Source: a virus (taxonomy: Duplodnaviria; Caudoviricetes). Taken from it: a stretch of 64,000 nucleotides of DNA. Both the position numbers and the translations under genes were made by a program. The stretch lies in the IMG/VR virus record IMGVR_UViG_3300021425_003554. One strand, written 5' to 3'. Below the pieces are notes generated by a model that worked only from the letters and a program-made list of their open reading frames with translations, did not search any database and was not told the origin of the DNA. Position 1 is the stretch's first letter; every line of letters begins with the position of its first letter. This document shows, piece by piece, positions 22,889 to 36,669 of the stretch.

Positions 22889-22963
22889 TGGCGGTCCCTA
22901 GGGGAATCGAACCCCTCTTTCGAGGATGAAAACCACGTGTCCTAACCGATAGACGAAGGGACC
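22889..22963 (-). tRNA. tRNA-Glu(UUC)
   Basis: GGTCCCT/AGGGACC acceptor, TT-TTC-AT loop, GTTCGATT T-loop, encoded CCA; T.T mismatch in anticodon stem. Confidence 0.9.
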
Positions 22964-22966
22964 GTT

Positions 22967-23042
22967 TGGTGGAGGTAGAGGGATTCGAACCCACGACCCC
23001 TTGAATGCAAATCAAGTGCTCTCCCAACTGAGCTATACCCCC
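22967..23042 (-). tRNA. tRNA-Ala(UGC)
   Basis: Canonical cloverleaf, G3.U70 identity pair, TT-TGC-AT loop, CCA. Confidence 0.95.
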
Positions 23043-23051
23043 ACATCGATG

Positions 23052-23127
23052 TGGTGCCCCAAGTCCGATTCGAACAGACGACCTACTGATTACAAATCAG
23101 TTGCTCTACCAACTGAGCTATTGGGGC
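23052..23127 (-). tRNA. tRNA-Thr(UGU)
   Basis: GCCCCAA/TTGGGGC acceptor, ACTGA-TTTGTAA-TCAGT anticodon arm, CCA. Confidence 0.95.
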
Positions 23128-23723
23128 CAAATACCGTATTCAATTATTTCTGAAATACCTGTATATAGAAAGTATACAGCAAGTATGCTAAAAATCCAAC
23201 GACTAATTTTAAAAATATTTTTGATGGGTAATTTTGTTATTTGATTATAGATTATTTTTGATACAGTCACCAATATTACCAAACCAGCCAAAATACCCAA
23301 ATATACCATTTGAATGTCCTGACTATCGATGATTATGCCTGTAAGAAATATAACCACTTCGACCCCTTCTCGAAACATTATACCAAAAACAGCAAGTCCT
23401 AATAACAAAGAGTTTCCAAAAGGTAAGGCTTTAACGTGCTGGCTGGCACTATGGCAGAACCATGCCACCCAGGCTAGTACAACACCCGTAATGACCCCTA
23501 TAAACCCTTCAAATCGCTCTGTATTTGCGTGATTGCCTAATAACTGGGCAGTTGTAGTGCCCAAAGCAATAGTGGCCAAAATAGACCCTAAAACTGCCCA
23601 TATAATGACTTTTATATGTTTGGGATTGTTGTTGGCCGCTGTGATGGCCAGCACCGCTATCAGCCATGCTTCAAGTCCTTCTCTGGCTATTACAAACGTG
23701 GTTGCTAGTAGAGTGGTAATCAT
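23118..23723 (-). CDS. FTR1-family iron permease (compact)
   Basis: Two RExxE motifs (REGLE, REGVE) and about six hydrophobic helices. Confidence 0.85.
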   Translation of the reverse strand: MITTLLATTFVIAREGLEAWLIAVLAITAANNNPKHIKVIIWAVLGSILATIALGTTTAQLLGNHANTERFEGFIGVITGVVLAWVAWFCHSASQHVKALPFGNSLLLGLAVFGIMFREGVEVVIFLTGIIIDSQDIQMVYLGILAGLVILVTVSKIIYNQITKLPIKNIFKISRWIFSILAVYFLYTGISEIIEYGIWPQ

Positions 23724-23807
23724 AATTTTATTAGTTGCGAATAGTTATTATTTGCATTTACTTATATCACACTATACACTATCAAACAAATTCGGTCAAC
23801 GATCAAC

Positions 23808-23871
23808 TTGACTTTTTTTGTTTTGGGTTGTAATATAAACATAGGTGATATGTGCTATTTGCATATAAATA
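23808..23871 (+). promoter_or_regulatory. Tandem sigma70 promoter and T4-type late promoter
   Basis: TTGACT-N17-TAATAT (23808-23836) and TATAAATA (23864-23871). Confidence 0.65.
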
Positions 23872-23876
23872 CTGAA

Positions 23877-23925
23877 CCATCCACATGGACATAAAGTGGC
23901 TGATCCACATCAGTTAAAAGTGGCC
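23877..23925 (+). ncRNA. Tandem CCAC-loop hairpin/pseudoknot leader RNA
   Basis: CCAT-CCAC-ATGG-ACATAAA-GTGG then CTGAT-CCAC-ATCAG-TTAAAA-GTGG; stems covary, loops conserved. Confidence 0.55.
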
Positions 23926-23951
23926 AACTTAAAGAAAAAAGGAGGTTACTT

Positions 23952-24152
23952 ATGTACACCAAAGATAGACACACTTATATGATGTCCTCATATTACAAAA
24001 AAAAAGACATCGAGCACAAAGAGAATGCTATGAAAAGAGCAGTTCAATCCGTTGACACATACGGAAACGGAACAACTGGCTACATGATCAAGCATGGATC
24101 AAATGCTGGCAAAATATTAAAACACATCAAAGTAGATCCGTCCAACTTCTAA
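23952..24152 (+). CDS. Small basic hypothetical protein
   Basis: AAGGAGG RBS, downstream terminator. Confidence 0.75.
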   Translation: MYTKDRHTYMMSSYYKKKDIEHKENAMKRAVQSVDTYGNGTTGYMIKHGSNAGKILKHIKVDPSNF

Positions 24153-24170
24153 ATTATTTGTGTATGGTAA

Positions 24171-24200
24171 CAACCGGTGAGCAGATTTGTTCACCGGTTG
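24171..24200. terminator. Stable hairpin / terminator
   Basis: CAACCGGTGAGCA-GATT-TGTTCACCGGTTG. Confidence 0.7.
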
Positions 24201-24249
24201 AAATTGTATTGACATATCGATATCAATCTATTATAAATATGGCGTAATT

Positions 24250-24498
24250 ATGAAATTTTTAAAAATTCAAAAAATATTGATATTATTTTTATTCGCCATT
24301 CTTTTGACAAGTTGTGCGTCTAAAAACAAAGACGTAGCAAGTAACAAAGAGCCGAACATATATGACGGATCTATTGGATTGGTCCTAGGTTGTATGTTCA
24401 ACCCGGCTGAATGTAACAAATTCAAGCAACAGGTTGAACAAGACGAGATAACCAAAGATTTTGAAGAGGTTGACAAAGCAACAAGCTCATCAAAATAA
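24250..24498 (+). CDS. Small lipoprotein
   Basis: Signal peptide with lipobox LLTSC; TTGACA-N17-TATAAATA upstream. Confidence 0.7.
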   Translation: MKFLKIQKILILFLFAILLTSCASKNKDVASNKEPNIYDGSIGLVLGCMFNPAECNKFKQQVEQDEITKDFEEVDKATSSSK

Positions 24499-24503
24499 TA
24501 GTA

Positions 24504-24704
24504 TTACTTCTTTTTTTCTATCAATTTACAATCTTCGGTGTTGGCCGGCAAACCAGAATTTTTGTCATATATCCATACATATGAATACGTGACCTTATCT
24601 GTAGACGCCAAACATTTTTTACCAAAAGAAACTTTTGGTGAAGTCGGCATAGCCGTGCATGACACGAGCATTACCGCGGTTGCTATCATTATCAAATGTT
24701 TCAT
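24504..24704 (-). CDS. Small lipoprotein
   Basis: Signal peptide with lipobox LVSC, further Cys pair. Confidence 0.65.
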   Translation of the reverse strand: MKHLIMIATAVMLVSCTAMPTSPKVSFGKKCLASTDKVTYSYVWIYDKNSGLPANTEDCKLIEKKK

Positions 24705-36572: not shown

Positions 36573-36669
36573 TGGTACGGTCAACAGGACTCGAACCTGT
36601 AGTGCCCTCTCGAGCTCCAGCGTCAAAACACCGGATGTGTCTGGATACTCCTGATTTCACCATGACCGC
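36573..36669 (-). tRNA. Atypical class II (Leu-like) tRNA-like RNA with non-canonical D and anticodon arms
   Basis: 7-bp acceptor GCGGTCA/TGACCGT, A73, CCA, T-arm ACAGG-TTCGAGT-CCTGT, variable arm GCTC-GAGA-GGGC; TGTTATAAT just upstream. Confidence 0.75.

Follow-up and report, generated by a model that had tools for sequence, protein, structure and literature searches.

The viral DNA stretch IMGVR_UViG_3300021425_003554 (64,000 nt in full, hereafter the window) carries, directly upstream of a gene for a 66-amino-acid (aa) basic protein, an untranslated leader in which two units of 23 and 24 nt follow each other. From comparison of homologous sequences, we conclude that this leader is a conserved, selected RNA of two small consecutive pseudoknots, whose pairing is strongly supported, and that it is a conserved cis-regulatory element common to SAR11 bacteria (Pelagibacteraceae) and their phages. 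In orthologous loci, a known glutamine riboswitch takes its place, and we consider the leader a strong candidate RNA switch of a new kind, one that would sense a metabolite or a factor.

Both units lie on the plus strand and share one architecture. In unit 1 (23877-23899), the stem CCAU/AUGG (23877-23880 and 23885-23888) encloses the loop CCAC (23881-23884) and is followed by the linker ACAUAAA and the tail GUGG (23896-23899), and in unit 2 (23900-23923), the stem CUGAU/AUCAG (23900-23904 and 23909-23913) encloses the loop CCAC (23905-23908) and is followed by the linker UUAAAA and the tail GUGG (23920-23923). There is no spacer between tail 1 and the stem of unit 2, i.e., tail 1 runs directly into that stem, so that the helices can stack into one rod. 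An earlier note on this DNA had described the same two units of hairpin, CCAC loop, A-rich linker and GTGG, had taken their differing stems as a sign of selected RNA structure, and had proposed from this one sequence that loop and GUGG pair with each other; all of the elements were found where it had placed them, and the homologous sequences bear out both the selection and the pairing.

Specifically, we built a covariance model of the two hairpins from relatives of the leader, a check that the earlier note had proposed, and left all pseudoknot information out of the model. It gave one match in the window (23874-23925, 70.1 bits, E = 1.4e-12) and a derived alignment of 45 distinct sequences with compensatory changes. 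Across this alignment, loop 1 pairs with tail 1 in 100% of cells and loop 2 with tail 2 in 96% of cells; two-sided changes are seen in 2 of the 4 pairs of unit 1 and in 3 of the 4 of unit 2, hence in 5 of the 8 loop–tail pairs, whereas slid controls paired in 23–34% of cells only. Stem 2 is paired throughout (100%) and has 2 pairs with two-sided change, and the extension of stem 1 also covaries. Pairing of either loop with the tail of the other unit was considered and rejected, as it is kept in ~82% of cells with many broken ones, compared to 96–100% within units. The leader thus has one general trait of riboswitches, a conserved, covarying structure in a 5′ untranslated region.

The loop/tail variants seen were CCAC/GUGG, CUAC/GUAG, UCUC/GAGA, UCGC/GCGA and UCAC/GUGA. 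A script requiring at least 3 of 4 loop–tail pairs listed 11 combinations of loop 1 and tail 1 and 8 of loop 2 and tail 2 among 56 distinct leaders, a list which illustrates diversity and is no test of pairing, since the script itself selects for pairing. G-U wobbles are frequent (UCAC/GUGG, CCAU/GUGG, UCUC/GAGG, UUGC/GCGA), so that the selected structure can only be that of the RNA of this strand. Against this variation, the stem CCAU/AUGG, the loop-closing A-U/U-A pairs of both units, the pair between the final C of the loop and the G that opens the tail, and the AAA(A)G at the end of the linkers are invariant, and the leader core is 85–94% identical where the coding sequences are 60–76% identical.

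Judging from its gene content (a phage-type primase, DnaB-like and other helicases, a virion-protein match, three tRNAs and many metabolic genes), we treat the window as a large marine phage; the nearest record, an IMG/VR viral contig, shares 99% identity with it across the locus. The same tandem leader was found before homologous 64–66-aa proteins by a pattern scan of viral contigs, and protein-guided scans of viral and metagenome contigs yielded 160 loci, with 23 distinct tandem leaders among them. In one phage lineage, the unit 2 stem has changed from CUGAU/AUCAG to CUCAU/AUGAG and its loop and tail from CCAC/GUGG to CUAC/GUAG; in other phage lineages, loop 1 reads CCAU or UCAC and still pairs with GUGG by wobble. 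Further pattern scans of viral contigs for more loop/tail variants returned known loci and chance matches only, and the cultured phages searched gave tRNA matches and one distant protein homolog without the leader (pelagiphage HTVC168P), and nothing else.

The element is equally a chromosomal one. A scan of species-representative genomes located the small protein on large Pelagibacteraceae contigs of up to 1.1 Mb, and the host leaders there show the same architecture with wholly different yet complementary loops and tails, e.g., UCUC/GAGA in unit 1 and UCGC/GCGA in unit 2. With the covariance model, the tandem element was detected in 30 of 151 sampled Pelagibacteraceae (SAR11) genomes, one per genome and always at the 5′ end of a small basic-protein gene; 151 sampled Alphaproteobacteria gave 3 matches, 2 of which are the known SAR11 genomes. 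One copy of the small protein each was found in 108 of 151 SAR11 genomes and, in a larger sample, in 316 of 401; it also occurs on >1000 metagenome contigs, and its only annotation is hypothetical. Further subtypes of the leader have a linker 2 of 20–22 nt that contains a small hairpin (hereafter the long-linker subtype). A third leader type (besides the tandem and the glutamine type) occurs in freshwater SAR11 (LD12/Fonsibacter; loci L304, L305 and L392-L396), and consists of a single hairpin with a loop (e.g., ACUGA) complementary to a segment (UCAGU) ~12 nt downstream, which may be a one-unit relative of the tandem motif.

A key result on genomic context is what takes the place of the tandem leader elsewhere. 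In more distant phage orthologs, a glutamine riboswitch (glnA motif, RF01739) sits in exactly this position with scores of 39–61 bits (gathering score 35), and in other SAR11 genomes RF01739 likewise lies directly upstream of the same gene. When 180 upstream regions were classified by leader type, 54 had the tandem leader, 65 the glutamine riboswitch, 7 a third hairpin type and 48 none, and 6 were too short. Two of the same 151 Pelagibacteraceae genomes have a single RF01739 match, which in both lies upstream of this gene, and both genomes lack the tandem motif. In the protein tree, a riboswitch-bearing ortholog is nested within the tandem-motif clade (support 98/93), and in alignments of the two locus types similarity starts only inside the coding sequence, from which we conclude that promoter, sensor and first codons were exchanged as a cassette. 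The window leader itself resembles neither glutamine class: RF01739 gave no match in the window at the gathering score, nor at E up to 10 over 23700-24300, and RF01704 (glutamine-II/Downstream-peptide) gave none in the window or in the host leaders. The earlier note had not recognized a known family in the leader, and in Rfam 15 none matched it either, at gathering thresholds or at E up to 10; the tandem leaders of the hosts likewise had no Rfam 15 match. The literature searched did not contain 'glutamine-III' together with 'riboswitch'. Glutamine riboswitches control the glutamine-synthetase inactivating factor (GIF) gene gifB in cyanobacteria and also occur in pelagimyophage-like phages (PMC6212724, PMC9004378), and SAR11 lacks PII-type nitrogen regulation and depends on riboswitches (PMC3870248).

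A candidate expression platform follows the two units. The Shine-Dalgarno sequence AGGAGG (23940-23945, plus strand) lies 6 nt 5′ of the AUG and is kept in the leader alignment. The minimum-free-energy fold of the window leader (−19.9 kcal/mol, z = −2.0) contains a predicted alternative helix, P3 (23918-23951, plus strand), in which AAGUGGCC (23918-23925) pairs with GGUUACUU (23944-23951) around CUU/AAG. Because AAGUGGCC includes tail 2, and GGUUACUU consists of the last GG of the Shine-Dalgarno sequence and the spacer, P3, which would occlude the ribosome site, and pseudoknot 2 are expected from folding to be mutually exclusive. P3 is predicted in most phage relatives too, and the glutamine-riboswitch leaders of orthologs have a similarly shaped helix sequestering the Shine-Dalgarno sequence right after the aptamer. 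The folding models suggest that tandem and glutamine leaders have a common platform, in which folding of the sensor would free the ribosome site.

Taken together, these observations can be combined into the following model. The RNA would start at hairpin 1 and, as covariation shows, folds into two consecutive mini-pseudoknots; in each, invariant A-U and U-A pairs close a short hairpin whose loop, with all four bases, pairs with the tail past the A-rich linker. Given that in close orthologs the glutamine riboswitch, a validated class, occurs in exactly the same place before a similar P3 platform, we infer that the tandem pseudoknots would be the sensor domain; a bound ligand or factor would then stabilize pseudoknot 2, free the ribosome site and turn translation on. 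By analogy with the orthologous loci, we give about an even chance to the leader being a riboswitch-like translational ON switch. The signal would most likely be glutamine or a related nitrogen-status metabolite, a guess by the same analogy, and glutamine as the actual ligand is a tentative and rather doubtful proposal. It is possible, and on balance unlikely, that the tandem leader represents a third class of riboswitches for glutamine (or nitrogen status), unrelated in structure to the other two, that controls a GIF-like small basic protein in SAR11 and its phages.

Several observations weigh against such a switch. P3 pairs in 86% of cells with zero two-sided covariation, and at one of its positions G faces G in most sequences; in the predicted folds of many host leaders the Shine-Dalgarno sequence is unpaired, and some host lineages have an alternative competing hairpin that could give the opposite logic. 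Each unit is also very small (~24 nt), and small repetitive hairpins are typical of protein-binding sites as well. By the established geometry of classical H-type pseudoknots, the 0–1 nt between stem and paired loop would not allow a closed hairpin and a 4-bp loop–tail helix to be complete at once; either the invariant A-U/U-A pairs would open, or hairpin and loop–tail pairings would alternate. The SAR11 gene neighborhood varies: pnp, SelO plus DUF294, and a glyoxalase-family gene were each seen in a different genome. It is because of this variable neighborhood, and of downstream proteins with no assigned function, that the ligand is a guess from analogy.

The earlier note had offered a riboswitch or a protein-binding leader, and these two remain the best pair of explanations, with the replacement by glutamine riboswitches in orthologous loci tipping the balance toward a riboswitch. 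If the units were instead bound by a trans-acting RNA-binding protein, or by the encoded basic protein itself, and translation or stability controlled in this way, the tandem arrangement of small hairpins with invariant unpaired bases would be what is typical of dimeric protein sites, and the product is indeed small and very basic; on such grounds mini-ykkC, too, was initially taken for a protein site (PMC2864571). However, two dissimilar protein families are found behind the same leader (see below), so that feedback by the product is not expected. The SAR11 neighborhoods examined revealed no candidate for a binding protein, and orthologs carry a metabolite riboswitch in the same place. We regard protein binding as a possible but rather unlikely explanation. 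The same replacement by a true riboswitch, along with invariant linker and loop bases, two covarying pseudoknots and 85–94% identity, none of which a simple stabilizer needs, makes it improbable that the leader acts as a constitutive 5′ cap, whose pseudoknots at the first nucleotide would protect the mRNA from 5′-end-dependent decay or enhance translation without sensing, even though phage and host copies alike, whatever their promoter type, have the element start at the predicted +1 and the Shine-Dalgarno sequence is often free in host folds.

Two further readings were rejected. The direct repeats adjoin a promoter, with a separate palindrome upstream, and could on this ground be two operator sites for a DNA-binding regulator; we hold this to be very improbable, as the repeats are located 3′ of the predicted start site and compensatory changes preserve pairing of the RNA, including G-U wobbles that neither DNA nor the opposite strand could pair. 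The remaining suggestion of the earlier note, a repeat RNA acting as a ToxI-like type III antitoxin or decoy, has next to no probability in our assessment: the units are tandem and pseudoknot-capable, but there are only two of them, of ~24 nt each, the product has 66 aa, and in SAR11 the element occurs once per chromosome, as a leader. Membership in a ToxIN system was considered and dropped, as the neighbors of the leader are the 66-aa protein, a lipoprotein-like open reading frame (ORF) and an iron permease, with no gene for a ToxN-like endoribonuclease or AbiQ-like toxin and no defense-system match in PADLOC.

The gene behind the leader (ORF 23952-24152, plus strand) encodes a small, very basic protein of 66 aa with an N-terminal helix and the conserved motif GNGTxGYxxKxGxNxGKxLxH, and matches phrog_32989. 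Its AlphaFold model is confident for the N-terminal helix only (mean predicted local distance difference test score of 69); no family match was obtained in Pfam, NCBIfam, PDB or PADLOC, and look-alikes retrieved with a language model were unnamed viral clusters only. In at least 8 sampled SAR11 genomes, the same leader instead precedes a 48-aa basic protein (MFYKDFQLLRK...; L347-L361) that has no detectable relation to the main family of 63–66 aa (hhalign probability 0.1). In some phages (four loci), S-adenosylmethionine decarboxylase carries the small-protein domain as a C-terminal fusion, and in three loci the small-protein gene comes directly after the gene for this enzyme; some of these fused or following loci fall among the unclassified upstream regions. 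This fusion and adjacency hint at a link to polyamine metabolism.

With respect to transcription, the leader is preceded by the promoter element TATAAATA (23864-23871, plus strand), which by sequence inspection may be a T4-type late promoter or an extended −10. T4-type late promoters have TATAAATA ~6 nt before the start and are used by a gp55-type late sigma factor, and transcription is accordingly predicted to start at ~23876-23877, i.e., at the first base of hairpin 1, giving a 5′ untranslated leader of ~75 nt. TATAAATA occurs 3 times in the 64 kb, which is not above chance expectation, and it is kept at equal distance in many phage relatives, while other phage copies and all host copies have a sigma-70-type promoter, TTGACA-N16/17-TAnnnT (e.g., TTGACA-N17-TACAAT), at the same distance. 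In both promoter types, the −10 element ends 5–7 nt 5′ of hairpin 1, and this alike spacing makes hairpin 1 the most likely beginning of the RNA. The late promoter that the earlier note had called is thus plausible from its recurrence in phage copies, and not specific, given that sigma-70-type promoters replace it elsewhere. Just 5′ of the promoter, a palindrome CATAGGTGATATG (23840-23852, plus strand) was noted by inspection, which could be an operator or an upstream terminator; many members of the gene family (L392-L396 and L397-L402 among them) have related boxes, CATATCAGGTATG or GCATATC(N)GATATGC, in their upstream region, at times three of them, and this includes a divergent subfamily from SAR11 genomes of 1.3–1.5 Mb.

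At the other end, a 13-bp GC-rich hairpin (24171-24200, plus strand) is a probable terminator, and the downstream gene has its own perfect TTGACA-N17-TATAAATA promoter (24209-24239), so that the small gene forms a separate transcription unit of one gene. The ribosome-binding GGAGG (23941-23945), the 66-aa ORF and the 13-bp hairpin were thus all present as first described, and the leader does head a small, monocistronic unit. Other features were observed 3′ of the small gene in relatives: in SAR11 (L309-L330), a GC-rich conserved hairpin with a conserved GGGGCACCUGGCAACAGAACGCCCC-like loop, perhaps a terminator, perhaps another RNA element, and in one phage locus with an upstream glutamine riboswitch (L055), a freshwater-2 RNA (RF02980, 60.9 bits) at 1724-1795, directly 3′ of the gene. 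Within the window, an 82-aa ORF with a lipoprotein-like signal (LTSC) follows the downstream promoter (within 24209-24498) and faces a convergent 66-aa lipoprotein-like ORF (24504-24704). On the minus strand, an ORF for an FTR1-like iron permease (23118-23723) overlaps by ~10 nt at its 3′ end with the tRNA-Thr gene, one of three tRNA genes (Glu-UUC, Ala-UGC and Thr-UGU) at 22889-23127. Farther away, GC content rises to 0.49–0.55 at 34–40 kb, GC skew is strongly negative (−0.2) with few long ORFs at 40–56 kb, and ARAGORN called a 97-nt tRNA-Gly (36573-36669) for which Rfam gave no confirmation; the stretch 34000-56000 may be of foreign origin, non-coding or a product of misassembly.

SAR11 is the most abundant ocean heterotroph and has almost no protein regulators. 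A single-copy RNA that is more tightly conserved than its own gene, shared with phages and, in orthologous loci, replaced by a glutamine riboswitch is, in this setting, a testable candidate for the sensing of nitrogen status by SAR11 and its viruses. By the present account, a small protein of 316 of 401 sampled SAR11 genomes would be linked to nitrogen control, and host and phage exchange whole promoter–sensor cassettes. Two stacked 24-nt pseudoknots with fully paired loops of 4–5 nt would also rank among the smallest sensor modules known.

Compared to known RNA classes, the tandem leader combines familiar traits in a different way. Among the glutamine riboswitches RF01739 and RF01704, it is RF01739 that holds the same place before orthologous small-protein genes in sister phages and SAR11. 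RF01739 is marked by a three-way junction, an E-loop and a CGUUC...GGAAGUA...GAAGGAACG core, and RF01704 by a pseudoknot helix in which the conserved glutamine pocket lies. The tandem leader has no three-way junction, E-loop or CGUUC/GGAAGUA/GAAGGAACG core, and consists instead of two repeated 24-nt units. In glutamine-II, the ligand stabilizes the formation of a pseudoknot (PMC6698751), and this class precedes short ORFs (PMC6698751, PMC2864571). The preQ1-I, SAM-II/V and guanidine-III riboswitches share with the tandem leader a hairpin, an A-rich 3′ strand, pairing of tail and loop, and control near the ribosome site; however, their longer loops form a pocket, whereas the loop of the tandem leader has 4–5 nt, is fully paired and occurs in two stacked units, and the models of these classes gave no match to the window leader. 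Guanidine-II (mini-ykkC) likewise consists of a tandem of very small hairpins, two in number, whose tetraloops are conserved, and its simplicity had spoken against a riboswitch at one time (PMC2864571), but its ACGR loops kiss each other, while the loops of the tandem leader pair with their own downstream tail. ToxI also has tandem pseudoknot-forming repeats, although these are 36 nt long and processed by the adjacent ToxN toxin.

A last comparison concerns the RS05825 motif, an orphan strong riboswitch candidate from SAR11 strain HIMB5 with 80 examples (Stav 2019, PMC6429828), among them the HIMB5 intergenic region NC_018643.1:1096812-1096977 (PMC6429828). In common with the tandem leader, it belongs to SAR11, to which it is confined, and always lies upstream of a small gene of unknown function with presumed control of translation (PMC6429828), and its spacing from P3 to the ribosome site fits the long-linker subtype. 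Unlike the tandem leader, it is drawn with three hairpins, an internal loop in P2 and no pseudoknots, and with no phage copies or link to glutamine riboswitches reported (PMC6429828). Compared by description only, the RS05825 motif may belong to the same family as the long-linker subtype, and a third glutamine class, if real, would also provide a ligand hypothesis for this orphan candidate.
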